DNA of 64,000 nt. Source: a virus. The stretch is from positions 288,001 through 352,000 of the IMG/VR virus record IMGVR_UViG_3300028840_006907. One strand, written 5' to 3'. The position numbers and the translations under genes were made by a program. Shown piece by piece: positions 1,845 through 56,861 of this stretch; the stretch's first letter is position 1; every line of letters begins with the position of its first letter. Below the pieces are notes generated by a model. That model was not told where the DNA came from. It saw only the letters and a program-made list of their open reading frames with translations, and searched no databases.

Positions 1845-2657
1845 ATGAGTGAGTATATTCCTCAAATTTGTATTAGTGCTAGTGATCCTGTTAATTCGGT
1901 AAAAAGTCTACAGGGAAGTATTATAGGTATTCTATTTGAAAAAAAGGGTAAAGAAATTAAAAGTTCTATTTATGATAGACTCAAATCAATAGATAATAAA
2001 ATCAAAGAATATGAATCAGTATGTGGTAAGACTGAATCATTTGTGGAAGAGAAAGAGAAAGAACTAAAATCTTTAAAGGAATTTCATCAAACAAAAGAAG
2101 ACGAAAAAAAGGCTCTATTATTGCCTATTAAAAAGGAAATTGAAGAAAAAATAAAAAGAGCCAATGATATTACTTATGAATTTGATCTTAGTGTGTTTAA
2201 TGCAACAAAAGAGAAAGCGATTGAATTTGAAAAAGGTTTTGATGATATTAAAAATAAATTTGATGAGATAGATAATTTACTTATAAAAGATAGAGCTGTT
2301 ATTAAAGGTGCCAGAGGTATTCAGGGTTCAACAGGTCTTATGGGAGAAACGGGGATTCAGGGAGAACCTGTTCACGGTATAGGTTATGGAAGTGATGGTA
2401 ATATAGGAATAGGTACTGATAACCCTGATTCTATTCTTCATATGGGGACTGATCCAGGAGATAAAGCATATAGTAGATTAAATACACTTAATAATCTTTT
2501 AAAAAAATATATCAATAAACTGGAATCATTAAAAGAAGGTATTAATAGATTGAAAGAAGAAAAGAGACGTCTTCAATTAACCTATGATAATATTGATGAA
2601 TCCAGGGATTACAAATTAGATCTTAATATGTTGTCTGCTTTCGGTTTCGAAAAATAA
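1845..2657 (+). CDS. collagen-like / coiled-coil fibre protein
   Basis: RBS aaaggag; seven uninterrupted Gly-X-Y triplets GARGIQGSTGLMGETGIQGEP (nt 2307-2369) flanked by Lys/Glu-rich segments; IGIGTDNPDSILHMG resembles the VGIGLSSPLDALHIQ motif of the fibre at 59979. Confidence 0.6.
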   Translation: MSEYIPQICISASDPVNSVKSLQGSIIGILFEKKGKEIKSSIYDRLKSIDNKIKEYESVCGKTESFVEEKEKELKSLKEFHQTKEDEKKALLLPIKKEIEEKIKRANDITYEFDLSVFNATKEKAIEFEKGFDDIKNKFDEIDNLLIKDRAVIKGARGIQGSTGLMGETGIQGEPVHGIGYGSDGNIGIGTDNPDSILHMGTDPGDKAYSRLNTLNNLLKKYINKLESLKEGINRLKEEKRRLQLTYDNIDESRDYKLDLNMLSAFGFEK

Positions 2658-2670
2658 CTGGAGGAATGTT

Positions 2671-3144
2671 ATGAAAATTGTAAAAGCAATGAAAAAAATT
2701 GCCCGGTTGAAAGGGGAAGTACGCGAATTAAAGAAACGCATGAGCCGTTGTTTAAATACCCTAGAAGATAATGAAGATTTTGTTGAATCCTATAAGGATT
2801 TAGAGAAAGAATTACTTCATAAAATTACGATGATTATAAATTTGAAAAGTATTATTATGAAAGCAAATATTGATAATAATATGTTTTCTGTTATTGTGAA
2901 TTTGGGTGAACTTAAGAGTTATATGGAATATTTAAAAGAACTTGAACCTAAATCGGGTTTTAATAGTTTAAATGATTATTCAGATAAAAATGCTGAATTT
3001 AAATCACAATTGACTATAAAAGAAAAGAATGATAAAATTTCTGAATGTCAAAAAGCTATTAATGATTTGACAGATCTATTGGACGATTTTAATGCTACAA
3101 CTAATGTAGAATTTACAGAAATAGATTTAAAATTATTTGAATAA
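2671..3144 (+). CDS. hypothetical coiled-coil protein
   Basis: RBS ggagg 8 nt upstream; charged helical-looking sequence; no enzymatic motif. Confidence 0.5.
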   Translation: MKIVKAMKKIARLKGEVRELKKRMSRCLNTLEDNEDFVESYKDLEKELLHKITMIINLKSIIMKANIDNNMFSVIVNLGELKSYMEYLKELEPKSGFNSLNDYSDKNAEFKSQLTIKEKNDKISECQKAINDLTDLLDDFNATTNVEFTEIDLKLFE

Positions 3145-3149
3145 ATAAA

Positions 3150-3340
3150 AAGTGTAGTTGTCCGATGAATAGGTTATAATTTAGTTCAGTTCCGATTGAG
3201 CTTTTTTATAATTTATAAAAAATACATGGTATAAAGATATTGATATTTTCTTAATAATCGTCTTAGGTTTTACAAGTTTTTAGTTTTCAGTTGAGTCGAA
3301 TATCATTGTTCTTTTTTAGTTTTAGTTGACAACTACACTT
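3150..3340. repeat. 13-bp perfect inverted repeat pair flanking a 165-bp AT-rich segment
   Basis: AAGTGTAGTTGTC at 3150-3162 is the exact reverse complement of GACAACTACACTT at 3328-3340; TTTAGTT-containing imperfect direct repeats lie inside. Confidence 0.7.
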
Positions 3341-3361
3341 CCTTTATTAGATAGGAATAAT

Positions 3362-3652
3362 ATGGGTAAACTTCATAAAGAACTTTTTAAAGGATTAAAA
3401 TGGGTCCTTATTGCTATACTTATTATAGCGTTTATGGTGGGAGCCTGGGTAGGGTTGGCATGGTCAATAGGTTGGTTTGTAAATAGATTTTTTGATTTAC
3501 AAAATTTCAGCCCTGAGAGTTACATTTCATTCGGATCTATTATGCTGGTCTTTAATCTAATATTACAAATAATAACTGTAATTATCACCGTATGGGCTCT
3601 TCTTGCCTGGGGAAAATCCCGAGGAATGAATAATTTAAAGGGGGTCAAGTGA
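3362..3652 (+). CDS. small integral membrane protein
   Basis: ORF track starts at TTG 3326, but ATG 3362 (MGKLHKEL) is more plausible; hydrophobic stretches WVLIAILIIAFMVGAWVGLAW and IMLVFNLILQIITVIITVWALLAW. Confidence 0.5.
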   Translation: MGKLHKELFKGLKWVLIAILIIAFMVGAWVGLAWSIGWFVNRFFDLQNFSPESYISFGSIMLVFNLILQIITVIITVWALLAWGKSRGMNNLKGVK

Positions 3653-4134
3653 ATCGTACAATAGAGATTGATGCTGAATTTTTTGAGCACCTTTTAAATT
3701 GTATGGCAAATCAGAAGTATATCGGATCCCAATTACCTGAAAAAGCTGCCGAGAAACAAAAGATTATTGATGAGGCATGGCGAAAAGGTATGGATATATT
3801 AAATCCTATCGTTAAAACGAAAGATAAAGCAGAGGATGCTTTAAAAAAATTCAATAAGAAACTTCATAAAGATCTCCCCCTTATTACAAAAAAGATAAAA
3901 GATGTAATGGATGACAATAAATATCCAAAGGATTATGTCACTGAATATGCTATGAAGTGGACTTCTGTAAGACAAGATTGTGAGATGTATTGTCTTATAG
4001 CAGAATCGGTAGATAAAGAAGAATTCGAAAAGTTATGTGAAGACAGAAGTTATACCCGGAATATGAGAGATTATATCATAGAGGTTTTAAAACATGTAGG
4101 GTTAGGAGATAATCTTGAACTGGGACATGAATAG
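3649..4134 (+). CDS. hypothetical protein
   Basis: 161-aa ORF; GTG start overlaps upstream stop (GTGA); no motif recognised. Confidence 0.5.
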   Translation: MNRTIEIDAEFFEHLLNCMANQKYIGSQLPEKAAEKQKIIDEAWRKGMDILNPIVKTKDKAEDALKKFNKKLHKDLPLITKKIKDVMDDNKYPKDYVTEYAMKWTSVRQDCEMYCLIAESVDKEEFEKLCEDRSYTRNMRDYIIEVLKHVGLGDNLELGHE

Positions 4135-4335: not shown

Positions 4336-7320
4336 ATGGCAGAGCAATTAAAAGTTGGATGGGTCGGATATGGGGGTAATAGTTGGATGGCTGAGGATCT
4401 TCGGCCAGTTATAGAAAAGCTAGGAATGACTTTATTCACGATTCATGAACATGATAACGCAGATATTAAATGGGAAAAGGATAACTGGTTCAATCATTTA
4501 AAAAAAGCTGATATAGTTATAGCTCCAGCTAATTATAAAAAACAACCTGCAAAGAGTGCAAATCGATTAATACAATCAATGTCAATGGGTAAACCTGTCA
4601 TATGTTCTCCTTTACCTGCATATTTAGATGTGGCTAAAAAACATCCTGGTTCATTTCTTCTAGCTGATGTCCCGGAAGAATGGGAGGAATGTTTAAAATT
4701 GCTTAGAGATAATCCTTCTTTTCGTAAACAGATGAGTGAGAAGGCTCTAGAAGCTGTTGAAGATTTTTCGATAAATGTCATAGGAAATAAGTGGCTAGAA
4801 TTATTAGAGAAAGATGTACCAATAAAAAAAGATACTGAATCGAATAAAGTTCTTATTACAGATATAATCATACCTACATATAAAAATCTTCGTGGCTTGA
4901 AGTTATGTATTGAGAGTATTCTGGAGTGTACGTTAGTGCCGTACAATATTATAATTGTAAATAATGGAACTGATGAGGAATTGCATAACTATTGTTCTCA
5001 ATTGGTAAATGTAACTTACATAAAAAAAGACAGACTTAATTTTGCCCAAGCCATGAATGTCGGGATTAAAGCAGGTGATTCTGATTTAGTCGTTCTATTA
5101 AATGATGATGTTATTGTCAGTAAAGGATGGCTTATGAATTTGAAATATGCCTGTACTGAAGATGTGGGTGCAGTAGGACCTTTAAGTAATTGTGATAAAT
5201 CCTGGCTCCATAATCATGATATCAATATTGGTGGAGTAGAATTACTGCCTGGTTCAAATACTTTTGAACAAATTGAGCCTATTATTTCTCAGATATATAA
5301 TTATGAATCTCCTTTTTTAGAAGAACCTGAACGAAAATGGGTTGCATTTTATGCTACTTTAATTCCTCGGTCAGTAATAGAAGAAGTAGGTTTTTTAGAT
5401 GAGTCCTTTACAAATTCGGGAGAGGATGTTGATTATTGTAACAGGATTATGAAGTTAGGGTATAAAATAAAACAGACCTATAAAAGTTTTGTATTTCATT
5501 TCGGAGCTGTAAGTAGGAAATTACTGGAGCAGGAAGATAAGGGCACTTATCAGAAAGCTGATGAGGAGACTCAAGAATATTTAAAGATCAAGTATTCAAA
5601 ACCAACAGTAATAATCTATTCCGGTGCCAGTTGGGAGAGATGGAGTTATAAGTCTCTTGAACAGGGGGGTATTGGTGGTAGTGAAGTTTGGCAGATAAAT
5701 GTTTGTCGTGAGTTAAATAAATTGGGTTATAGAGTAATCAGTTTTAATGATTCCCCGGAAAAGGAAATGTGGGAAGATGGGATTCAATATCTTCATTATG
5801 GAGAATTTTCGAAATGGTGTGATGGTAACTATGCCGATTACGCAATTATAAGTAGAACAACCGATCCTTTACATCATCCTTTAAGAGCTGGAAAAATATT
5901 TATAATGGTTCACGATGTCTGGTTACTTTCTGCTAGAGATCAATTATTCCTTGATAAAGTAGATAAATTTTGTGTACTTAGTAAATGGCATTGGGATTTT
6001 TTTAAAGGTCACCATGGAATCCAAGATGAATCAAAATTGGCGTTGACTTCTAATGGGATAGATTTTAATCGTTATGATAACAAAAATATTGAAAGACATC
6101 CTTATAAAATGTTTTACAGTTCTTCCCCGGATCGAGGTCTTGATACACTCCTTTACCTATTTCCCTTTATTAAGGAAAAAATTCCAGAACTTGAACTCCA
6201 TATTTATTATGGATTTAACAATTGGGAAAAGGCAGTGAAGATGAGAAAAAACCAGATTGAGATAGATAGAATGAATAAAATAAAAAAGGATATGGAACAA
6301 CCTGGGGTATTTTATCATGGCCGAGTTGGTCAGAAGGAGCTAGCTGAAGCGCAATTAGAATGTTCTCTTTGGGCCTATCCGACGGATTTTGAAGAAGTTT
6401 TTTGCATCACTGCTATTGAGGCTCAAAGAGCCAGAATCCCTGTATTAGCAACGAATTACGCTGCTTTACAGACAACAGTAGGTGACTCAGGAATTCTAAT
6501 AGGAAATGGCATGAAAGGAGAATCTTATACACGAGATTATCGATTAAAATTTGTAGATGAGTGTATAAAAGTTTTAACAGATAAAGAATATAGAGAACAC
6601 TGGATTGAGAAAGGTTTAAAAAATACGGAGAAATATTCTTGGGAACAAGTGGCTAAAAATTGGAAGAAATTGTTTGAAAAAAGTGATCAAAAAGTAGAAG
6701 CAAAAATTATAGATGAAAAAGAATACAAGAAAGATCGAGTGCTAGTTCATGAAATGAAAATAAGTTCTAATTATATGCCAGATCCTCACAGCCATTTAAA
6801 TAATGAGAGAGATCGTTTTCATTATTATAAAACACTTAATGCTTTCGTTTCATCAAATTCATGTAGTGCATTGGATGTGGGTTGTTTTGATGGGTGGATT
6901 GATTTTCTTCTTATAGAACAAGGATTTAAATTAACTGGAGTTGAGTTGATGGAACCTCTTGTTCAAGCTGCTCGAAAATATGCAGAAGTTAAACAACTTG
7001 ATTATACAATTTATCAGGGTTTTTTTGAAGAGATTGAGATAGACCAGAAATTTGATTTAGTGATATGTTTGGAGACTTTGGAACATATTGATTTAAAACT
7101 TGTCCCTGAGTATATACAAAAAATGAAAAGTCTTGCTACAAAGGGTCTTTTCATATCACTCCCGGATCAGAAACATGAAGATAATACCCAGCATTTATGG
7201 ACACCTACTGAAAATTTAATAAGAAAAATGTGGGGTAATAAAAAGAATTTTTCATTGGAATACCATACTTATCAGGATTCAAATTTACCCGCTAATTGGT
7301 TAATTTATTTCGAAGTGTAG
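4336..7320 (+). CDS. 994-aa multidomain glycosyltransferase / methyltransferase fusion
   Basis: Four segments. ~4336-4830: GT-B C-terminal-half-like. ~4858-5536: GT2 (IIIPTYKN, LLNDDVIVSKGW, GEDVDYCNR). ~5608-6676: GT4/GT1 (GGIGGSEVW, EVFCITAIEAQRARIPVLATN). ~6825-7320: class I SAM methyltransferase (ALDVGCFDGW, LVICLETLEHI). Confidence 0.85.
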   Translation: MAEQLKVGWVGYGGNSWMAEDLRPVIEKLGMTLFTIHEHDNADIKWEKDNWFNHLKKADIVIAPANYKKQPAKSANRLIQSMSMGKPVICSPLPAYLDVAKKHPGSFLLADVPEEWEECLKLLRDNPSFRKQMSEKALEAVEDFSINVIGNKWLELLEKDVPIKKDTESNKVLITDIIIPTYKNLRGLKLCIESILECTLVPYNIIIVNNGTDEELHNYCSQLVNVTYIKKDRLNFAQAMNVGIKAGDSDLVVLLNDDVIVSKGWLMNLKYACTEDVGAVGPLSNCDKSWLHNHDINIGGVELLPGSNTFEQIEPIISQIYNYESPFLEEPERKWVAFYATLIPRSVIEEVGFLDESFTNSGEDVDYCNRIMKLGYKIKQTYKSFVFHFGAVSRKLLEQEDKGTYQKADEETQEYLKIKYSKPTVIIYSGASWERWSYKSLEQGGIGGSEVWQINVCRELNKLGYRVISFNDSPEKEMWEDGIQYLHYGEFSKWCDGNYADYAIISRTTDPLHHPLRAGKIFIMVHDVWLLSARDQLFLDKVDKFCVLSKWHWDFFKGHHGIQDESKLALTSNGIDFNRYDNKNIERHPYKMFYSSSPDRGLDTLLYLFPFIKEKIPELELHIYYGFNNWEKAVKMRKNQIEIDRMNKIKKDMEQPGVFYHGRVGQKELAEAQLECSLWAYPTDFEEVFCITAIEAQRARIPVLATNYAALQTTVGDSGILIGNGMKGESYTRDYRLKFVDECIKVLTDKEYREHWIEKGLKNTEKYSWEQVAKNWKKLFEKSDQKVEAKIIDEKEYKKDRVLVHEMKISSNYMPDPHSHLNNERDRFHYYKTLNAFVSSNSCSALDVGCFDGWIDFLLIEQGFKLTGVELMEPLVQAARKYAEVKQLDYTIYQGFFEEIEIDQKFDLVICLETLEHIDLKLVPEYIQKMKSLATKGLFISLPDQKHEDNTQHLWTPTENLIRKMWGNKKNFSLEYHTYQDSNLPANWLIYFEV

Positions 7321-7611: not shown

Positions 7612-8247
7612 ATGAAAAAAGGGCTATTTTTTACTTTTGAAGGTATTGATGGTTGTGGCAAAAGTACTCAATTAAGATTATCTACAGAATATCTTAAAAC
7701 TAAAAATATCCCTCATATAGTGACCCGAGAACCGGGAGGTACACCACTAGCAGAGAAAGTCAGAGAAATAATATTATCCCCACAGAATGATATTAAAGAT
7801 CGAGCTGAAGTTTTATTATACCTTGCTTCTAGAGCACAACATGTGGAAGAAAAGATAATCCCGGCAATGGAGCAAGGTAAAATTGTGCTTTGTGATCGTT
7901 TTCAGGAAGCTACATTTGCTTATCAAGGATTTGGTCGTGGTTTTTTAAGAGAGACTTTAGAAGTTTTAAATAATTTCTCTACTGATGGGTTGCAGCCAAC
8001 AAGGACCTTTATTTTTGATGTGAGTCTTAAATGTGCTAGTGAGAGATTAAAGAAGACCGGTAAAGCTCCGGATCGGCTTGAGCAAAATTCTCTTGAATTT
8101 TTTAGTAAAGTACGACAGGGTTTTTTTTCTCTAGCTGAAATTCATTCTGATCGAATACATCTTATTAATAGTGAGAAACCTATAGATGAAATTTTTGAAA
8201 TTGTTAAAAAAGATATAAACAAATATATAGATTATGGAAGCATATAA
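7612..8247 (+). CDS. tmk: thymidylate kinase
   Basis: FFTFEGIDGCGKSTQ P-loop, TREPGGT, LLYLASRAQH and LCDRF...AYQG motifs; ATG 7612 follows upstream stop (track start 7546 is upstream-extended). Confidence 0.9.
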   Translation: MKKGLFFTFEGIDGCGKSTQLRLSTEYLKTKNIPHIVTREPGGTPLAEKVREIILSPQNDIKDRAEVLLYLASRAQHVEEKIIPAMEQGKIVLCDRFQEATFAYQGFGRGFLRETLEVLNNFSTDGLQPTRTFIFDVSLKCASERLKKTGKAPDRLEQNSLEFFSKVRQGFFSLAEIHSDRIHLINSEKPIDEIFEIVKKDINKYIDYGSI

Positions 8248-8401
8248 ACTTTGTCCTCGATGTGGGGAATTGGTACCATTCAATACATATTTTGGTGGGT
8301 ATTTTTGTAAGTGTGGTTGGAAAGATGATACTTTTGATAAAGAGCGTATTGCTGCTATGAGAAAATGGAAACTACCAAAATCTTCAGATGGAATTATTTA
8401 A
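8234..8401 (+). CDS. 55-aa zinc-ribbon protein (below ORF-track size cutoff)
   Basis: My translation: MEAYKLCPRCGELVPFNTYFGGYFCKCGWKDD...; CPRC...CKC pairs; overlaps tmk 3' end by 14 nt. Confidence 0.4.
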   Translation: MEAYKLCPRCGELVPFNTYFGGYFCKCGWKDDTFDKERIAAMRKWKLPKSSDGII

Positions 8402-8681
8402 GTTCATACCATTCTGGCATTGCTTCTTTTTTTGAAAGTTTTCGTTGTACCTTTATAGATGTTTTAGGTTCATTTTTAACATATACTTTGTTATATCCCA
8501 GGGATTCCTGGGGATTTAATTCCATATCATTTGTTATTTCAAAAGAGATACCAGAAAAATCACTCTCTATTCTAACTCTTCTTTTATTATTCTCCTTCGA
8601 TTTTTTAACTGCTCTAAGAAGTTCTCTTAATGTTTTTTCGGTAAGATGTATCGTACTTTTATCGATATTTATATGAGGCAT
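8394..8681 (-). CDS. hypothetical protein
   Basis: MPHINIDKSTIHLTEKTLRELL... reads as a normal soluble protein, unlike the low-complexity + strand ORF 8365-8676; convergent with tmk operon. Confidence 0.4.
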   Translation of the reverse strand: MPHINIDKSTIHLTEKTLRELLRAVKKSKENNKRRVRIESDFSGISFEITNDMELNPQESLGYNKVYVKNEPKTSIKVQRKLSKKEAMPEWYELK

Positions 8682-8930
8682 ATTCCCACCCAATAAATTT
8701 TATAGCCGATCAAAAATTAAAGATAATATAATGCATTTCTAAATTTCAAATTTCCTTTAATTCAAAGGGTATTTCAGTGTCTCTTTGTGGCTCTTCAGTT
8801 TAATAATCATTTAATATTAGCTTCTAATTAGGTAGAGTTATACAAGAAATATTTATGAATAAATTCGATTATCTATTAATAGTTAACCGTTTTAAAAGCA
8901 TAGAAAATCTTAGGAATAAAAAGAGGCTGT

Positions 8931-10280
8931 ATGGAACAAAAATTATCGGTTATAGGATTAGGTAAATTGGGCTGTACAATGATGGTATGTTTTGCTCATA
9001 AAGGATGGGAAGTTATAGGGGTTGATGTTAATGAATTAACTATTGAAACTATTCTACGAGGTCGGAGTCCTATCGATGAACCTTTTGTAGAAGAGATGAT
9101 AAGTGATAATGCAGAAAGGATAAGAGTAACATCTGATTGTGAAAATGCTGTTTTAAATAGTGATGTAAGTTTTGTAATAGTTCCTACTCCCAGTAAGGAA
9201 GATGGGTCTTTTTCGACAGAATATGTTGAAAATGCTACAATGGAAGTTGCGAAAGCTTTGACAAAAAAGAACTCTTATCATTTAATTGTAATTACTTCTA
9301 CTGTTCTTCCTGGAGACAGTCTTCGAATTTCTTATGAGATTGCTCGGGAGTCAGGGAAAGAACTAGGAAAGGATTTCGGTGTTGTTTATAATCCTGATTT
9401 CATAGCACTCGGTAAAATTGTCAGCGATTTTTTAAACCCTGACATGATCCTTATCGGTGAGTACGATGAGAAGTCAGGAGATATCATTCAAGACATACAC
9501 CTGAAACTTATAGATAGTAATCCTACTTTTCATAGGATGAATTTCTTTAATGCTGAACTGGCGAAAATTTCTCTTAATGCCTACTGTACTTTGAAAATTA
9601 CTTTTGCGAACATAATCGCGGAGATATGTGAGAATTTACCTGGCGGTGATTCTAATAAAGTCTTAAGTGCTGTAGGAGCTGATAGTCGGGTGGGTCAAAA
9701 ATATCTCAAAGGTGGTTTGGGGTACAGCGGACCATGTTTTCCGCGTGATAATCGAGCCCTCGCCCATTCTGCAAGGTTCTTTGGCACTACAAATTATTTC
9801 TGTGAGATGACAGATGCAATAAACAACTATCATAAAACAGAAAGAATATGCAATCTTTTATTGGGGTACATGGAAGAAAAGAACACAAAAGAATTAGCTA
9901 TACTTGGTTTATCCTATAAGGAAGATACTCCTGTGATTGAAGAATCTGTATCTATTTCAGTTATAAAAACTCTTTGGGAAAAAGGAATGAATATAAAAGT
10001 TTTTGATCCGGTTGCTATGGAAAATGCAAAAAGAGAATTAGAAGGTTATGATAATATTTATTATGCCTCTTCTGAATATGATTGTATAGATGGTACTTCC
10101 GTTTGTTTTATAGCTACTCCTTGGAAACAGTTCTTTAGTTTGAATCATCAAGAAGTAATAAAAAGAATGAAAAAGAGTTCTATTATTCTTGACTCATGGG
10201 GAGTATTACCTTATGACAGAGCAACTAATAGAGGCAAAAAAGTAGAGGTAAAACAACTAGGGAAAAATTATCAATCGTAA
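8931..10280 (+). CDS. nucleotide-sugar dehydrogenase (UDP-glucose/GDP-mannose dehydrogenase family)
   Basis: N-terminal Rossmann VIGLGKLGCTMMVCFAHKGWEVIGVDVN; catalytic-Cys region GGLGYSGPCFPRDNRAL; family-typical length of 449 aa. Confidence 0.85.
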   Translation: MEQKLSVIGLGKLGCTMMVCFAHKGWEVIGVDVNELTIETILRGRSPIDEPFVEEMISDNAERIRVTSDCENAVLNSDVSFVIVPTPSKEDGSFSTEYVENATMEVAKALTKKNSYHLIVITSTVLPGDSLRISYEIARESGKELGKDFGVVYNPDFIALGKIVSDFLNPDMILIGEYDEKSGDIIQDIHLKLIDSNPTFHRMNFFNAELAKISLNAYCTLKITFANIIAEICENLPGGDSNKVLSAVGADSRVGQKYLKGGLGYSGPCFPRDNRALAHSARFFGTTNYFCEMTDAINNYHKTERICNLLLGYMEEKNTKELAILGLSYKEDTPVIEESVSISVIKTLWEKGMNIKVFDPVAMENAKRELEGYDNIYYASSEYDCIDGTSVCFIATPWKQFFSLNHQEVIKRMKKSSIILDSWGVLPYDRATNRGKKVEVKQLGKNYQS

Positions 10281-49949: not shown

Positions 49950-50816
49950 ATGGACAAAAAATATGAAGACCGAATGCTTGTCGTTTTTATCTTAGTGGGT
50001 CTAGTTGGTGGGTCACTGTTCTATTTCCTTAAAGATGGTCAGCCTCTCAGCTCAATTTTCATGACTTTCGCTCTATCAAGTATCCTCTATCGATTCCTGG
50101 GTGGAATTGGCCAAGGCACAAAATTCAGTGTCGGAGCATTTCGGTTAGGTGGTAGTGCAGCCTTCATGATCGGCTGTATCTTTTTTATCAACGAGTACAT
50201 TTTCCCAAAACCAGAAATCAACACCATTGTTTTAAGTACTCCCCAGGATCGATGGGTTCCTGTTAAATACCCTACAGGTGAGTATGTGAATGTTAAGGTA
50301 TTAACTCCTTCTGGAGATACTATTATTCATGGTATAAGTAGTGTAGAAATGGATGCTTTAAAAAAAAGGGAATACTGCATCACAAAAGAAGGGGAGAATT
50401 TTTATATCTGTTCTAATGCTGATTCAACGGTAATAGGCCATCTTAAGTTTGAAGATGTTTTTAAAGCTATTGAAAATGATATCCATATCACAGTCCAAGA
50501 TTTTCGGGTTTTTAAATTATACCCTAATCCTATAAATGACCCAAAAGATCAAGAAAAGAAATATAAAACTACTGATTCACTTGATGCTGTAAGTCAGACT
50601 TTTCCCATAGTAATCGAAGTCGATAAAACTAATATGAATATAAAGACAAAGGATGACAGTTTATTAACATCAGATGTACCTCGTAGTGAAAAATTCTATT
50701 TAGTTGATATTGAAAATGAGTATTTTATAGTTACAATATTACATGCTAATTTAGAAACATCAGAAAGTAAATGGTATTCTGAGTTTCTTGTTGGAAAAGT
50801 ATCTATTAATCGATAG
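49950..50816 (+). CDS. membrane protein with C-terminal soluble domain
   Basis: RBS aaaggagg; three N-terminal hydrophobic helices (MLVVFILVGLVGGSLFYF, IFMTFALSSILYRFLGG, GGSAAFMIGCIFFI). Confidence 0.55.
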   Translation: MDKKYEDRMLVVFILVGLVGGSLFYFLKDGQPLSSIFMTFALSSILYRFLGGIGQGTKFSVGAFRLGGSAAFMIGCIFFINEYIFPKPEINTIVLSTPQDRWVPVKYPTGEYVNVKVLTPSGDTIIHGISSVEMDALKKREYCITKEGENFYICSNADSTVIGHLKFEDVFKAIENDIHITVQDFRVFKLYPNPINDPKDQEKKYKTTDSLDAVSQTFPIVIEVDKTNMNIKTKDDSLLTSDVPRSEKFYLVDIENEYFIVTILHANLETSESKWYSEFLVGKVSINR

Positions 50817-50823
50817 AGGTAAT

Positions 50824-51252
50824 ATGAGCAATATGAAAATTGCAATAGCTTCTTATATGCGTTATACAGTTGTTTTAGCCAACTTGAAAGAGCATTTCAA
50901 AAGAGAACTCGATCTAGCTGGCCTATTTGATAAAGACTCCGATTATAATGGAATGATAGGTAACGCTGTTATGGACCTGTGTAAAGTCTTCTCTGATCAG
51001 GGCCATAGCGGGTTCTCCGCGAACTGGGTTCTGAAATTGTTCGATACTCTTGGTCACTATAAAACGTTGACTCCTATTACAGATAATCCGAAAGAGTGGA
51101 TGAAGGTTACAGATGGCCTCGGTAGAGATGAACCGGTCTGGCAGAGTAATCGAAATCCTTCCCTTTTTTCTAATAATGGTGGAAAGAGTTATTATGATGT
51201 AGACGATAAGAAGCGTAAGAAGATCCGCTCTAAAAAGTTTAAAAAGAAATAA
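50824..51252 (+). CDS. hypothetical protein
   Basis: ATG 50824 follows upstream stop (track start 50788 overlaps); basic C-terminal tail. Confidence 0.5.
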   Translation: MSNMKIAIASYMRYTVVLANLKEHFKRELDLAGLFDKDSDYNGMIGNAVMDLCKVFSDQGHSGFSANWVLKLFDTLGHYKTLTPITDNPKEWMKVTDGLGRDEPVWQSNRNPSLFSNNGGKSYYDVDDKKRKKIRSKKFKKK

Positions 51253-51414
51253 TTTTTCTGAATAAATCAGGTTTTTTTCTTATTCTTTCGATAATTTCTC
51301 TTCTCTTTTTTCTCATAATTTATTATAATTATATATAGTATCTATAGCTCTTTGAAATTGGTAGAAATTTACTGAATCCGTAAGCCCTTGATCTTATGAT
51401 ATTTATGTTTTAGT
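51253..51414 (+). promoter_or_regulatory. AT-rich CRISPR leader-like region
   Basis: 162-bp gene-free AT-rich segment immediately 5' of the first repeat in the I-E repeat orientation; possible TTGATC(51388)-17 nt-TAGTAT(51411) promoter, weak. Confidence 0.45.
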
Positions 51415-52313
51415 ATATTCCCCGCGTATGCGGGGCTGGGCCGATAAATCTTAAAATGGGTAAGATAAAAACCTGAATATTCCCCGCCCATGCGGGGCTG
51501 ATGCGTAATATAAATAATTTTTGATCAATTATAGGACATATTCCCCGCCCCTGCGGGGATTCCCCGAAAATATTGATGTTTTTTTGTATATATCAAAAAT
51601 ATTCCCCGCCCCTGCGGGGTTGATGCGAATACCGAACAAGTGCAGGGCCTGCAGATTATATATTCCCCGCGTATGCGGGGCTGGCGCGTAGGAGGTAAAA
51701 ATGAAATCGAAACATATTCCCCGCGTATGCGGGGCTGGTTCTAGAATTGAATGAAGCGCTGAATTTTCCCCGCCCATGCGGGGCTGAACCGACCGGGAAA
51801 TCATATCTATCCATAAATCTTGCATATTCCCCGCGTATGCGGGGCTGAACCGATACTAGATTGGGACATGTGTTTACCCAGAACATATTCCCCGCCCATG
51901 CGGGGCTGAACCGATTTCAAAAAACACGACCAGATAAAGATGAATATTCCCCGCGTATGCGGGGCTGTGTCAGGGTGAGAGGCTCGTGACGAATAATTTT
52001 TCATATTCCCCGACTCTTCGGGGTTGCCCCTCAGGAAGCTATTGAATTGCAAAAAACTGTATTCCCCGTCTATGCGGGGCTGTCTCTCCACATGCAAATG
52101 TAAGTAGTAAATACTGAATATTCCCCGGCATTCCGGGGCTGATCCCGTCTGGTAAAAACATAAAATGGTTCATCATAAGTATTCCCCGCCCATGCGAGGT
52201 TGGGCCATCCAGTACTGCTACTGCTAGGACCGTATTCCCCGCCCATGCGGGGCTGATCCTACGACTGGGACAGAAGTATTCATTGGTTTCACCCCGGCCT
52301 TTCCGGGGTCTAA
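51415..52313 (+). CRISPR. type I-E-like CRISPR array, 16 repeats, no adjacent cas genes
   Basis: Best repeats ATATTCCCCGCGTATGCGGGGCTGAACCG at 51824 and 51885 (51763 differs slightly). The TTCCCC anchor recurs at 51418, 51480, 51541, 51602, 51663, 51717, 51766, 51827, 51888, 51947, 52006, 52062, 52121, 52182 and 52235, plus a degenerate copy near 52288. Unique intervening sequences. Confidence 0.85.
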
Positions 52314-52316
52314 AAT

Positions 52317-52355
52317 AAGGATCTGAGATTTTTTTCTTAGATCCTTATATTTTTA
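52317..52355 (+). terminator. rho-independent terminator immediately after the array
   Basis: AAGGATCTGAG (52317-52327) pairs with CTTAGATCCTT (52336-52346) with one G-U; 8-nt loop; T-rich tail. Confidence 0.65.
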
Positions 52356-52409
52356 ATAATGTATTTATATTATTCCTTTAAATAATATCAAAATAAAAAA
52401 GGAAAAAGT

Positions 52410-53315
52410 ATGGCAATTGCGTTTATGAGAGGAAGCACCACTAATCAGAATGATTTGACCATAACGGTACGTGATACATCCAATAATTTGATCGACCCGT
52501 ATTCGTTGGAGTATGCTGTCTTCGATTACACTAGTGGCACTGAGGTCCTCATCGGATCCCCTGTTAATACTCCGCTCAAGTTGTCAACAGGAGAATATTG
52601 GGCGGAGGTTGTAATAGCAGCCGATGCCAATATAGGTCTCTGGCGCATCCGTTGGACAATTCAAGAAACAGCAGTCAGTCCTGTTTATCAATCGGTTCAG
52701 GAATTTCAAGTAGTAGGTTCCAGTGTTGTGACGAGTGTAACCGGAGATGCAAATTTTGATGCATTGGTCCATTCTTTACGAGTGATACTCCGAGACAACA
52801 ATCCGGACCGCAACTACAGATTTCGTCCCCCAGCTTCCGAGAAATTTATCCAAGGTCAGACCCAAGTCTTTGGATTCATTTGGGAAGATGAAGAGCTTGT
52901 AGAGTATATATACATGGCTATTGACGACTTCAATTCACGCCCCCCGACTACAGGTATAGATGTGGCCAATCTTTGGGGAACTGAGAGACGGTGGAGAACT
53001 ACAATTATTTTAAGAGCAGCAGCTTTTGCATGTTTCGCTATAACAATGAATTGGATCGCTGACGAATTTTCTTATTCAATTTCTGGAGTATCTCTTGACA
53101 TTGAGAAATCTTCGAAGTATCAATCTATGAAAGAGAATTATATCAATGAATATGACAAGCTTGTCGAGGCCAATAAGAGATCCATAAAAATTATAAAAGG
53201 TCTTAGGCAATATCGGTACGGGGTGGGCATCACGAGCGCCCTGGGACCCATGAACAGACCTGGAGTTCAAAGTAGAAGAAACCTTATAAGTCCAAGTTAT
53301 GGCCCTTATTTCTAA
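52410..53315 (+). CDS. hypothetical protein (possible virion protein)
   Basis: 301-aa ORF; visibly less AT-rich than its surroundings; no motif recognised. Confidence 0.5.
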   Translation: MAIAFMRGSTTNQNDLTITVRDTSNNLIDPYSLEYAVFDYTSGTEVLIGSPVNTPLKLSTGEYWAEVVIAADANIGLWRIRWTIQETAVSPVYQSVQEFQVVGSSVVTSVTGDANFDALVHSLRVILRDNNPDRNYRFRPPASEKFIQGQTQVFGFIWEDEELVEYIYMAIDDFNSRPPTTGIDVANLWGTERRWRTTIILRAAAFACFAITMNWIADEFSYSISGVSLDIEKSSKYQSMKENYINEYDKLVEANKRSIKIIKGLRQYRYGVGITSALGPMNRPGVQSRRNLISPSYGPYF

Positions 53316-53408
53316 TGAGTTATGGAGATGATAGCTTTTTCTGTAAATCTAAATTATTCTATATGATTTTATAAAGAATATTTGTAGACTTGGACCTAGG
53401 GCAGTACC

Positions 53409-55859
53409 TTATATTTTATTATTTTTTCTAAGGAGAGCTATCTGACGTTTAATCCATCGAGGAGTTTCTTCAAGAGTTTCAGCCATTTGATTTCTTGTCA
53501 TCTTTCCACGATTATCTATTATGAATTGGAGCTTTTCTTCAGTCTTTCTATCTTTGGTACAACCAATAGGGTTTTTTGTAGATAATGTACCTTTTTTTTG
53601 TAAGAATTTTATTTGAGATTTAACCCATCGCTCTGTTTCATTGAGAGCTTTAGATAATTCTTTTTTAGTTTTATTTTTATAATTAGTGATTATATACTGC
53701 GTTTTTTCAGGGGTTCTTCTACATTTTGTTGAGAATTTAGAAATCTCTTTTAAATAGGTAAATTTCTCAGTGGGTTGTTTAATATTTATATCTTCAATAC
53801 ATTTTGAATTATATATTTCTTTTTCTCTTTTAGGATAAGGTTTAGTAACATAATTTTTTAATTTGTTAATTTTTTTCTTATCTCTTTTATTTTCACCTAT
53901 TAATAAGACATATTTATGTTTTCTTTCAGTAATAAATTTTTGAGCTTCAGATAATATATTTTTATTCCAATTATTCCATTGAACTTTAATTCCTTCTGGT
54001 ATGGTACTCATATTTTTAAAACCATTTTCTTTAAACCATTCCTTTTGAGAAATAATCCCTTGATTTTTACACCATTTTTTAAATGCTGATGTACGTTTTA
54101 GAGATTGAGCTGAAAAAGTCCTATTATTTTTAATGGAAGGATGTTTATATAAGTATGAACTTCCAAAGTTATTTCCTAGATAATCAAATCCACAAGCTTG
54201 GTAAATAGTCCCTATTTCAAGAGCTTTAGGATCAGCATAACCTATGAAAGCTCTTTTAGAAGTGTTATTAGCCATCCAATTACAAGCAAACCTTATAAGA
54301 CGGCTACCCAGGTTTTTCGGGGTCCATGAGGCAGTGGCACCTCTTTGAATTAAAGCTTCATATTTGGGAGTATCTTTACCTAGAATTTTGGAATATGCTG
54401 TGGGTTCATTTATAAATAATACTCCTGCGAGAATATTATTGTATCTGGCTGTGAAGCACCATTTTGGTATTACTCCAATTGTTCCTAACCATTCATATTT
54501 TTTTATAAATTGGACCATTTCATTATTAAATTTTTCTTCAGATAATGTAAAAGAAGTAGCTTTTAAAGAAGAGTGATTGAAATCGATATTTTTTTTATCT
54601 TCATCAATCCATTGAAGTTTCTTTTTATATTGGTGGCATATAAAAGTGGTCTTGTTTTTACTGTTAATTTTATTTTTTATTAAATCAATGATAATACCTT
54701 TTCGGATAGCTTCTTTTACATCATCAGACCAAAATCTAATCAAATTGGGTATATTTTTATTTTGGATTTCATCATTCTTAATATTTTCTTTTATTTTTAA
54801 TGCCCTTGGAGACGTATCATTTTCTCTTATTTCTTTACCATGCCAATAATTACCATCATATTGTACCCATAAGTTATAGCGAGGCATATAGAAATCAATT
54901 ACATGTTTAATAATTGGGTGCATAACTTGATGTTCTACAAAAGGATCAAATACAATAAGATAATTAAAAAAGTTATTTTCTTCATCTGAGGATGAGAAGG
55001 AATTATTTAGTTTAACTGTTTTATATGTTTTTTCTTTTATTTCAACATTCTGTTGGGGATTTTCAACGCCATATCTTTCAATATTAGTTTCAGTGATTTT
55101 TTTCTTAATCTCTGGAGATTGGAATACATTGTCAACCCCGTATCTTGATTGTACTGTTACTTTAACTTTTCTTTTTACTTCTTTAGATTGAGAGGGGTAT
55201 TCTACTCCTCGTTTTTCAATATTAGATTGACGGGATTTTTCTTTCATTGAGTTTAGTTGAGTAGAATATTCTACGCCATAACGTTTTTTAATAGTTTCGT
55301 TATTATGTTTAACTATATCTTCATTTATTTTATCTCGATTCCTTCTTAATCCTAGTTTAATAGCTCTTTCTCGGATGGCTTTCCAGGTCCTGTTTTCAAA
55401 GTAGAGCATAATAAATTCCATAGAATTCTTTTCATATACTTCTTTTAAAAGATCATCTTCTTTGGGTGACCAGAAGTCTTCCCTAGCAGGAGCGCTTTTA
55501 CCACCATCAATCATTTCTTGTTTAATTATTTCAGGATTTCTTTGAAGGTTTAATTTTTGAGCATTACTTCGGATGCTTTGCCATGATCGATTCTTGAATT
55601 TAGAAAGGATAAATTCTTTTGAATTATTTTCATATATATTTTTAAGAATATTTATCTCTTCGGTTGTCCAGGAATCTTTTCTTGGTCCTCTTTTTTTACG
55701 GTCTTCATTTATAAGGTCAGGATTACGGTGAAGATTTAGCTTACGTGCTTTTCTACAGATGGTTGTCCAAGATTTATTTAATTTGGAGATAATAAATTCT
55801 TTTGAATTATTTTTATATATTTCTTTTAATAAATTTTCTTCTTCTATTTTCCAACGCAT
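53409..55859 (-). CDS. free-standing homing-endonuclease-like mosaic protein (Myb/SANT x3, HNH-associated repeats, PD-(D/E)xK-like core, Mom/GNAT-like domain, C-terminal HTH repeats)
   Basis: ATG 55859 with RBS aagagg (track start 55916 less likely). Three W-x2-EE-x2-L...Y...W...I repeats. Four (R/K)(Y/R)GVExxxQ repeats. VIDFYMPRYNLWVQYDGNYWHG. NLGSRLIRF...FIGYADPKALEIGTIYQACGFDYLG. Confidence 0.65.
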   Translation of the reverse strand: MRWKIEEENLLKEIYKNNSKEFIISKLNKSWTTICRKARKLNLHRNPDLINEDRKKRGPRKDSWTTEEINILKNIYENNSKEFILSKFKNRSWQSIRSNAQKLNLQRNPEIIKQEMIDGGKSAPAREDFWSPKEDDLLKEVYEKNSMEFIMLYFENRTWKAIRERAIKLGLRRNRDKINEDIVKHNNETIKKRYGVEYSTQLNSMKEKSRQSNIEKRGVEYPSQSKEVKRKVKVTVQSRYGVDNVFQSPEIKKKITETNIERYGVENPQQNVEIKEKTYKTVKLNNSFSSSDEENNFFNYLIVFDPFVEHQVMHPIIKHVIDFYMPRYNLWVQYDGNYWHGKEIRENDTSPRALKIKENIKNDEIQNKNIPNLIRFWSDDVKEAIRKGIIIDLIKNKINSKNKTTFICHQYKKKLQWIDEDKKNIDFNHSSLKATSFTLSEEKFNNEMVQFIKKYEWLGTIGVIPKWCFTARYNNILAGVLFINEPTAYSKILGKDTPKYEALIQRGATASWTPKNLGSRLIRFACNWMANNTSKRAFIGYADPKALEIGTIYQACGFDYLGNNFGSSYLYKHPSIKNNRTFSAQSLKRTSAFKKWCKNQGIISQKEWFKENGFKNMSTIPEGIKVQWNNWNKNILSEAQKFITERKHKYVLLIGENKRDKKKINKLKNYVTKPYPKREKEIYNSKCIEDINIKQPTEKFTYLKEISKFSTKCRRTPEKTQYIITNYKNKTKKELSKALNETERWVKSQIKFLQKKGTLSTKNPIGCTKDRKTEEKLQFIIDNRGKMTRNQMAETLEETPRWIKRQIALLRKNNKI

Positions 55860-55962
55860 ATGAGTACCTCTTTTTAGTATATTACTTATTATAACAGGTA
55901 TTAGAGTTATTGTCAATATTTCATTTAATAAATATGGAATTCATTAATTTATAGGGAAAAAG

Positions 55963-56316
55963 ATGGAAATTGAAATTTATGGAAAAGAATTTGTTTCTTG
56001 TAATATTTTAAGGGCTGAAGTAGGTACAAATTGCCCACAGGGGGGAGATACAGGACATGGTGGTCGAACTATTTTAAGATTGATTGATGAAGCAGCTACT
56101 GATATAAGTATAAAAGTAGATGGTCAGCCTTTAGGTAGTATAAAAACTTTGGAAATATTATTAGGTGGCGATACTGAGTGCGACACTTTTATGAATGCTC
56201 TTAATTTTGCCTTGAATGTATTAAAAGATCATAATCCAAATTATGAAATGGATCCACATATAAGAGGTTCTGGGAAGGGATTGATACAAAAAGATTATAA
56301 AATAGAAACATTATGA
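55963..56316 (+). CDS. hypothetical protein, upstream partner of ATPase
   Basis: 117 aa; GTNCPQGGDTGHGGRT Gly-rich loop; stop overlaps ATPase start (ATGA). Confidence 0.5.
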   Translation: MEIEIYGKEFVSCNILRAEVGTNCPQGGDTGHGGRTILRLIDEAATDISIKVDGQPLGSIKTLEILLGGDTECDTFMNALNFALNVLKDHNPNYEMDPHIRGSGKGLIQKDYKIETL

Positions 56317-56861
56317 TTACAAAGATAGAATTATTAGAAAAATACAGAACTTTAAAACCGTTTGTTATGGAGCCTAATCTAGGAGTCAATCTTATTGTTG
56401 GTGAGAATGGTTCGGGTAAATCCTCATTGTTAAATATTATAAAGGAAAATGCTCCTGAGGTAAGATTAGAAATTGAAGGTACTATAAATTATTACCATTT
56501 TGATACGGAAAAGGACAATCCTCGAACTCAAGGCACTCTTCCATTTAATGCTCCTGGTGATGTTTATGCCTATCATCTGACGTCACATTTCCAGAGTCAT
56601 GGTGAAGTACTATTTCCTATTTTAAATCTTATGAGAACTTTTGAGAACAGGATTTTATTCTATGATGAACCGGAGAGTGGGGTCTCGATTAATAATCAGT
56701 TAAAGGCATGTACTGCGATAAGAAAAGCGGTAAGGAATGGTTGTCAACTTTTTATTGCGACTCATTCTTATATATTTATAAAAAAATTTAAAAAAGTCTT
56801 TGATTTAAAGACATATCAATTTGTAAAATCAGAGGATTGGTTATCTCAATTTAGGATATAA
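56313..56861 (+). CDS. minimal ABC/SMC-type P-loop ATPase (182 aa)
   Basis: Walker A GENGSGKSSLL, Walker B + D-loop ILFYDEPESGV, H-loop FIATHS. Confidence 0.75.
   Translation: MITKIELLEKYRTLKPFVMEPNLGVNLIVGENGSGKSSLLNIIKENAPEVRLEIEGTINYYHFDTEKDNPRTQGTLPFNAPGDVYAYHLTSHFQSHGEVLFPILNLMRTFENRILFYDEPESGVSINNQLKACTAIRKAVRNGCQLFIATHSYIFIKKFKKVFDLKTYQFVKSEDWLSQFRI

Follow-up and report, generated by a model that had tools for sequence, protein, structure and literature searches.

The window examined here is a stretch of 64,000 nucleotides of viral DNA, positions 288,001 to 352,000 of IMG/VR record IMGVR_UViG_3300028840_006907. It carries on its minus strand a gene for a protein of 816 amino acids (aa) in which DNA-reading modules, a predicted nuclease and a Mom-type DNA-modification domain are joined in one chain (Table 1). 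An earlier note on this DNA had described the protein as a mosaic of five parts, and all five are found. The minus-strand open reading frame (ORF) is uninterrupted, and its longest possible start is a TTG codon at 55916; this codon opens the -35 box of a sigma-70 promoter, which stops 28 nt upstream of an ATG at 55859, and the true start is therefore the ATG, giving 816 aa. In two related loci, L003 and L006, the promoter is kept at 11 of the 12 consensus positions, and in L003 it lies at the same distance from the ATG. Moreover, an identical 816-aa protein (P0001) is present in public data, the largest contig that encodes it having 469,617 bp. The locus is thus confirmed as a real gene with its own promoter. 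It is also the only minus-strand gene in its neighbourhood, as had been noted before, and on a 388,651-bp JGI contig encoding the identical protein all neighbours within 10 kb lie on the opposite strand. No second (paralogous) copy of the fusion gene is present within the window. A foreign origin judged by composition was considered and rejected, the GC content of 0.286 falling inside the range of the neighbouring genes. When the 816-aa protein was searched as a whole, NCBIfam gave no match and phmmer against PDB sequences gave a spurious Hfq match only.

Table 1. Features of the fusion gene, its surroundings and comparable loci. Positions without a locus number are those of the window; HTH, helix-turn-helix.
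Feature	Location	Strand	Basis or remark
Fusion coding sequence, 816 aa	53409..55859	-	ORF list and identical public protein P0001; stop codon 53409-53411
Sigma-70 promoter, TTGACA / 17-nt spacer with TG / TATAAT	55888..55916	-	12/12 consensus match
Three Myb/SANT-like repeats, aa 1-185, predicted DNA-reading	55305..55859	-	PHROG 323, family alignment
Four DUF7487 repeats ((Y/R)GV..xQ), aa 186-285	55005..55304	-	Pfam DUF7487, PHROGs 12131 and 3339
Vsr-fold (EDxHD-type) nuclease, aa 286-400, predicted	54660..55004	-	candidate catalytic E294, D322, D335, H340, D363
Mom-type GNAT domain, aa 437-678	53826..54551	-	Pfam, PHROG, PDB profile, hhalign, AlphaFold2 and Foldseek
Two C-terminal HTH repeats, aa 713-766 and 767-816	53412..53723	-	weak Pfam CggR_N, HTH_11
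Conserved 301-aa neighbour (nb301)	52410..53315	+	3' flank is the insertion slot
CRISPR-like array	51406-52257		15 repeat copies
Gene with Tad3 Pfam match	~50824-51252		just upstream of the array
117-aa gene overlapping 182-aa ATPase gene	55963-56861		AAA_23/SMC_N matches
Zinc-finger/DUF7487/Vsr genes (PDF...VEVFGDYWHG)	L024 8935-10257; L027 8988-10247; L053 8979-10151; L054 2734-4413	neighbour gene's strand	slot of the fusion in other loci
HTH + LAGLIDADG_2 + N6_N4 DNA methyltransferase genes, ~755 aa	L015 8968-11253; L029 8939-11194		slot of the fusion in other loci
HTH + LAGLIDADG_2 + Mom single ORFs	L097 4618-6765; L098 4660-6780; L099 4807-6765		LAGLIDADG_2 54-110 bits
Stand-alone Mom genes, ~276-295 aa	L091-L094 ~5900-6790		neighbour gene at ~2050-3920
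Lengthened neighbour homologs	L031, L032, L035, L062, L063, L078, L083-L085 ~8001-9220		~1,220 bp, not ~900 bp

Profile and fold comparisons agree on the identity of the Mom-type domain. Pfam Mom (PF25680) matches aa 505-599 with 41.9 bits against a cutoff of 27.1, PHROG 1384 ('Mom-like DNA modification protein') matches aa 451-689 at 5e-18, and a profile built from 23 relatives finds the Mu Mom crystal chain 8bv8 as its sole credible PDB sequence match (E=2e-4). Alignment by hhalign with the Mu Mom sequence (from NC_000929) gives a probability of 93%. In an AlphaFold2 model of aa 424-695, with a predicted local distance difference test (pLDDT) score of 91.1, Foldseek ranks two 8bv8 chains first (E=4.4e-10, template modelling (TM) score 0.64 on the target, 247 alignment columns), five orders of magnitude ahead of ordinary GNAT acetyltransferases at ~1e-5. 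The earlier suggestion of a Mom-like segment at ~54170-54530 is therefore upheld as to the family, and the segment does not belong to an unrelated fold, but its extent was drawn too narrowly; the whole domain (Table 1) ends in a PYPK motif that is common to Mu Mom.

Mu Mom moves glycine from Gly-tRNA(Gly) onto adenine N6 in double-stranded DNA; its R111A and S124A mutants lose activity, R151A has no detectable activity, D149A had earlier been shown to have greatly reduced activity, and H58, Y59 and Y159 are also important (Silva et al. 2026). Hidden Markov model and hhalign alignments place S519, D543 and Y553 opposite Mu S124, D149 and Y159, and R506 is placed opposite R111 by manual register and by its strand position in the model. 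These four candidate catalytic residues are invariant in 20 relatives of 31-75% identity, and in the model they lie, as expected, at a strand end, at the beginning of the helix after it, at the end of the strand that follows and in the helix after that. In addition, model residues 150-216 form a ~65-residue helical insertion between late strands, compared with Mu Mom at the level of the fold only; Mu Mom itself has an HTH-like insertion late in the fold that binds DNA and is required for activity. The Mom-type domain is the best-conserved segment of the protein, with a mean identity of 57%. We therefore regard it as a true Mom-family enzyme that is kept by selection and belongs to a divergent subfamily, its exact chemistry being a prediction.

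The nuclease domain is clearly predicted, from a model of aa 270-424 (pLDDT 89.6), to be the Vsr variant of the PD-(D/E)xK fold. Foldseek ranks Vsr at the top for this model, and the best fold matches include I-Bth0305I, a homing endonuclease that has been validated. The EDxHD homing family is defined by the Vsr positions E25, D51, H64, H69 and D97 (Taylor et al. 2011), and the equivalences given there lead to E294, D322, D335, H340 and D363 in the fusion protein. These residues are spaced at 28/13/5/23, compared to 26/13/5/28 in Vsr, and the family alignment shows them to be invariant or at least 90% conserved in relatives, with Q333 invariant alongside. The segment that had been flagged as Vsr/PD-(D/E)xK-like thus carries a full EDxHD set, but the catalytic lysine of the canonical D...(D/E)-x-K motif is absent, D322...Q333-Y-D335 with H340 being the Vsr arrangement; two relatives, P0110 and P0114, carry D...E-I-K at this motif instead. 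Pfam Vsr stays below its cutoff on the 816-aa protein (E=0.18), and a profile of the nuclease domain run against PDB sequences returned chance matches only and no Vsr, so that the assignment rests on fold and motif rather than on sequence statistics.

The remaining three parts, all of them repeats that had been noticed from the letters, are predicted DNA-reading modules. At the N-terminus PHROG 323 ('transcriptional regulator, D5-like') matches in 3 stretches (5.6e-13) and the three Myb/SANT-like repeats are plain in the family alignment; Pfam Myb scores 13.9 bits on this protein, under its cutoff of 24.4, and homologs are recorded with PF00249/PF13921. The four repeats of homing-endonuclease type that follow match Pfam DUF7487 (PF24308) over aa 186-283 with 62.9 bits against a cutoff of 27 (E=5e-17), and PHROGs 12131 and 3339, both named 'homing endonuclease', match them at 5e-15. 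Both the protein sequence and the family alignment clearly show two HTH repeats at the C-terminus, and their Pfam HTH matches are weak. The same module occurs at the N-terminus of the genes that fill the slot in L015 and L029, with 45-55% identity by tblastn, and HTH_11/HTH_24 Pfam matches are found on the proteins encoded there.

A word-indexed protein search gave 285 relatives, of which about 100 of the best carry both DUF7487 and Mom, many of them on contigs of 100-590 kb. With more than 100 homologs having the same pair of domains, the fusion is not the unusual arrangement that the earlier note took it to be. Mom-less relatives (P0095-P0112) share 42-57% identity over the DUF7487 and nuclease part. 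In all four of the closest contexts the fusion gene faces, in convergent orientation, a conserved ~300-aa gene, which in the window is the 301-aa neighbour, and the other flank is variable. We anchored 80 viral loci on this neighbour and scored each fusion domain against them by tblastn. Among loci in which the neighbour gene is 53-58% identical to that of the window, the fusion is present in the slot in L006, L007, L008, L014 and L016 and absent in L009, L011, L012, L013, L015, L029 and L051, so that presence and absence are scattered among loci with an equally related neighbour gene. Three of the occupied loci (L007, L008 and L014) are collinear with L051, with ~72% nucleotide identity on both sides of the slot, and have a ~2.3-kb segment containing the fusion ORF only in place of the ~60-bp spacer that separates the stop codon of the neighbour from the next start codon in L051. 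Comparison of the locus in related phages, which had been put forward as a check for a homing element, thus reveals a clean single-gene block, present or absent at one slot, and this polymorphism is the pattern expected of a free-standing homing gene.

The slot also has other occupants. In some loci it holds genes encoding 390-560 aa, on the strand opposite to that of the fusion, whose products combine DUF7487 repeats with a zinc-finger region and a Vsr motif of canonical form, and the fact that these genes also fill it identifies the intergenic site as an insertion hotspot. In L015 and L029 the occupant joins an HTH module, LAGLIDADG_2 and an N6_N4 DNA methyltransferase. In L015 both of the latter domains pass the Pfam cutoff; in L029 LAGLIDADG_2 narrowly misses it and the methyltransferase narrowly passes. 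Judged by sequence, these genes represent a second, independent putative fusion of a homing-type nuclease with a DNA modifier at the same slot.

The Mom subfamily extends well beyond this slot. A scan of viral contigs gave 468 stretches, and the best 80 were classified; about 53 of these are stand-alone Mom genes of ~300 aa and 15 are DUF7487-Vsr-Mom fusions. A cultured Vibrio phage has a stand-alone Mom gene amid nucleotide-metabolism genes, and single ORFs joining HTH, LAGLIDADG_2 and Mom are found in three loci (Table 1). When 1.84 billion representatives were searched exhaustively with a profile, 151 matches at E<=1e-30 were obtained, and 68 of the 150 best are at least 400 aa long. In the long representatives that were inspected, Mom lies at or near the C-terminal end. 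The Pfam partners in the 68 long proteins are DUF7487 (11), LAGLIDADG (2-3), HNH types (2-4), REase_MTES_1575 (1), a TnsA-like nuclease (1) and an integrase (1), and the N-terminal regions of the remainder are unrecognised by Pfam; LAGLIDADG, HNH, REase_MTES_1575 and TnsA-like enzymes are thus independent nuclease partners of this subfamily. Moreover, four loci of related phages (L091-L094) have a stand-alone Mom of 57-58% identity ~2-3 kb from the neighbour gene, and it is possible that such a gene was a donor for the fusion.

Some features of the surroundings deserve description in their own right. The earlier note had placed the fusion gene next to a CRISPR cassette; the array lies ~1.15 kb away with one gene between, and it is atypical. 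Its 15 copies of a ~28-nt repeat (TATTCCCCGC...GCGGGGCTGA) have an irregular spacing of 49-62 nt and variable repeat loops, and some stems show compensatory changes (CCCCGA..TCGGGG and CCCCGG..CCGGGG). Among 167 loci the repeat is seen only in a copy of the same phage, and no Rfam family is found in 50500-56500. The gene just upstream of the array has a Pfam match to Tad3. The 301-aa neighbour has no Pfam or PHROG match, though more than 110 viral contigs encode relatives of it, and its GC content is 0.427 (0.39 at third codon positions), compared to 0.29-0.36 in the surrounding genes. In nine loci (Table 1) the homolog of this neighbour is lengthened and in several of them it is split in tblastn, which suggests an insertion inside that gene. 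On the other side of the fusion gene, a 117-aa gene overlaps one for a 182-aa minimal ABC/SMC-head-like ATPase, and this pair is conserved beside the fusion gene in L003.

The reading that we favour, with confidence that is about evenly balanced, is that the gene is a mobile homing-type nuclease-modifier of an uncultivated huge phage, in which the logic of single-chain restriction-modification enzymes is used in homing. What the data show is which domains are present, that their catalytic residues are conserved, that the gene has a promoter to itself and that it is cleanly present or absent at one intergenic slot; that the two domains are active as enzymes, what modification is made and that this modification confers immunity to the nuclease are inferred. 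Host RNA polymerase would transcribe the fusion gene from its own sigma-70 promoter, and the three Myb/SANT, four DUF7487 and two HTH modules would seat the protein on DNA. The Mom domain would add an aminoacyl or acyl group to adenine N6 in double-stranded DNA of the phage itself, and if it worked as Mu Mom does the group would be glycine from Gly-tRNA(Gly), rearranging to carbamoylmethyl-adenine; no tRNA gene that might provide a tRNA-Gly link is present within the window. The nuclease would then cut unmarked DNA, namely the allele without the gene in a relative infecting the same cell and perhaps further DNA that lacks the modification, whereupon recombinational repair would copy the gene into the slot just 3' of the conserved 301-aa gene. 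The modification may double as a shield against host restriction. Support for coupling of the two activities, rather than mere co-travel, is provided by the repeated fusion of the Mom subfamily to unrelated homing-type nucleases, and the parallel methyltransferase fusion with the same HTH module points to functional coupling. In addition, LAGLIDADG and similar enzymes have long targets, and fusion to them speaks against degradation of DNA in bulk.

A number of observations weigh against this reading. The position of the essential Mu R151 is K545 in the fusion protein and varies among K/E/S/M/Q/A in the family, and Mu H58/Y59 are apparently replaced, as aligned by eye only, by the invariant E456/W457, perhaps implying that the donor or the chemistry differs from that of Mu Mom. 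About half of the Mom subfamily is stand-alone, and Mom must therefore work without a nuclease. The connection of the nuclease to Vsr is weak when sequence is considered by itself. The adenines that Mu Mom modifies are many and lie in a loosely defined context, whereas homing endonucleases are usually self-immune simply because the insertion changes their target. Moreover, the identity of the fusion and that of the neighbour gene run roughly in parallel (86/75, 77/63 and 57/54%), so that the fusion co-diverges with its neighbour and its history may be largely vertical; the empty sites could be precise deletions. Because R151 is not conserved, stand-alone Mom genes are common and the fusion co-diverges with its neighbour, the alternative explanations keep real weight.

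Two of these alternatives survive best, and we consider both of them unlikely but serious. The protein might be a single-chain restriction-modification weapon that takes no part in homing, cutting host or superinfecting-phage DNA broadly while Mom protects the phage genome-wide, and this is the reading advanced in the relevant paragraph of Iyer et al. (2021). Broad cutting would sit poorly with nine DNA-reading modules, which suggest a long and rare target, with the presence of LAGLIDADG and HNH homing types among the nuclease partners in the wider family, and with clean single-gene presence or absence at a hotspot that is common to other homing-type genes. Alternatively, Mom might be anti-restriction cargo on a homing endonuclease, protecting against host enzymes only and having no functional link to the nuclease. 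Mu Mom does act alone as an anti-restriction enzyme, stand-alone members of the subfamily are common, the cultured Vibrio phage included, and in L091-L094 a stand-alone Mom lies ~3 kb from the same neighbour gene. Adjacency would be enough for co-mobility, however, and would not need a fusion, and the fusions to at least four nuclease folds, together with the LAGLIDADG-methyltransferase protein that has the same HTH module, point to shared targeting.

We think it very improbable that the Mom-like GNAT acts on a substrate other than DNA, whether aminoacyl-tRNA, as the TacT/AtaT toxins do, or protein, with the DNA-binding and nuclease parts being unrelated to its function. GNATs are versatile, the equivalents of Mu R151 and H58/Y59 differ, and neither substrate nor co-substrate was predictable from structure (Silva et al. 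2026). The best fold and profile match is nevertheless Mom and not a toxin GNAT, the modelled helical insertion appears to lie where Mu Mom has its essential DNA-binding insertion, and the domain is set among DNA-binding modules. That the protein is a DNA-binding regulator with decayed relic enzyme domains, as the label of PHROG 323 and the Myb and HTH modules might suggest, is scarcely credible given that both catalytic sets are invariant across relatives of 31-75% identity and that Mom is the most conserved segment.

A more far-reaching proposal, which we hold to be less likely than not, is modification-immunised homing. In huge phages, homing endonucleases of unrelated folds (Vsr-like, LAGLIDADG and HNH) would repeatedly have been joined to a DNA base modifier, either a Mom-type GNAT or an N6/N4 methyltransferase, and each such element would place a chemical mark on the genome that carries it, at the very site its nuclease recognises, and would not rely on divergence of the target sequence. 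If this is true, these proteins are hybrids of homing endonuclease and restriction-modification enzyme, which would allow conserved sites to be invaded without disruption, the phage also being shielded from host restriction. More generally, if modification and cleavage are coupled, two classes of selfish DNA elements would be linked, and a natural pair of programmable-looking nuclease and base modifier would be at hand. The locus is a well-delimited test case, with one promoter, one ORF, named residues for both domains and the sequence of an empty site in a close relative. It could show whether a homing element may use a covalent DNA mark as its means of self-immunity, and how the addition of DNA-reading modules directs a tRNA-dependent DNA modifier to its target.

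A single paragraph of Iyer, Anantharaman, Krishnan, Burroughs and Aravind (2021, Viruses 13:63) predicted fusions of Mom with restriction endonucleases in jumbo phages and proposed a restriction-modification logic for them. The fusions described there are like the present one in combining Mom with a DNase of restriction-endonuclease fold in a very large phage, and that paragraph makes no mention of homing, of presence and absence, or of Myb, DUF7487 and HTH modules. In view of this prediction and of more than 100 public homologs, the fusion protein belongs to a class already outlined in that paragraph. A literature search of incomplete coverage found neither a paper describing a Mom-homing-endonuclease element nor one describing natural fusions of LAGLIDADG with a methyltransferase. 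The present analysis contributes three points: the nuclease is assigned to the EDxHD type and its residues are named, the gene is directly seen to be cleanly present or absent at a hotspot, and homing nucleases belonging to several folds are observed to pair with modifiers of two kinds. The same literature search found no paper in which these points are described. The small Mu enzyme, which stands alone, is the only one for which the details of Mom-type hypermodification are known, and fusions of Mom with a nuclease have so far been predictions only.

Mu Mom (8bv8, PF25680) and the Mom domain of the fusion protein are alike in the GNAT fold, in the equivalents of R111, S124, D149 and Y159 and in PYPK, and the modelled helical insertion may correspond to the one that Mu Mom has late in the fold. 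Their identity is only ~15%, however, R151 is variable and H58/Y59 have apparently become E/W; moreover, Mu Mom is a 241-aa stand-alone enzyme under Com control, whereas the Mom domain described here forms part of a chain of 816 aa. The EDxHD/Vsr-like homing endonucleases (I-Bth0305I, PDB 3r3p, and Hef of T4-like phages) have the composite motif positions in common with the predicted nuclease. The position of Vsr H64 is D335 here and N in I-Bth0305I, and that of Vsr F62 is Q333 here and not an acidic residue. These endonucleases bind DNA through NUMOD2, whereas the fusion protein has Myb, DUF7487 and HTH modules, and, unlike them, the gene lies outside any intron or intein and carries a DNA-modifying domain. 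Putative homing endonucleases with DUF7487 (F-LimIII of Dickeya phage LIMEstone1 and ORFs of Lak megaphages) share the succession of DUF7487 repeats and a Vsr-like core, but have neither a Mom domain nor the C-terminal HTH repeats. By analogy of architecture, with nuclease, modifier and DNA-reading parts in one chain, the fusion protein appears to resemble single-chain restriction-modification enzymes. Those of types IIG/IIL (BpuSI, DrdV and MmeI) use an S-adenosylmethionine-dependent adenine methyltransferase and not a GNAT, and they are not homing-type mobile genes.

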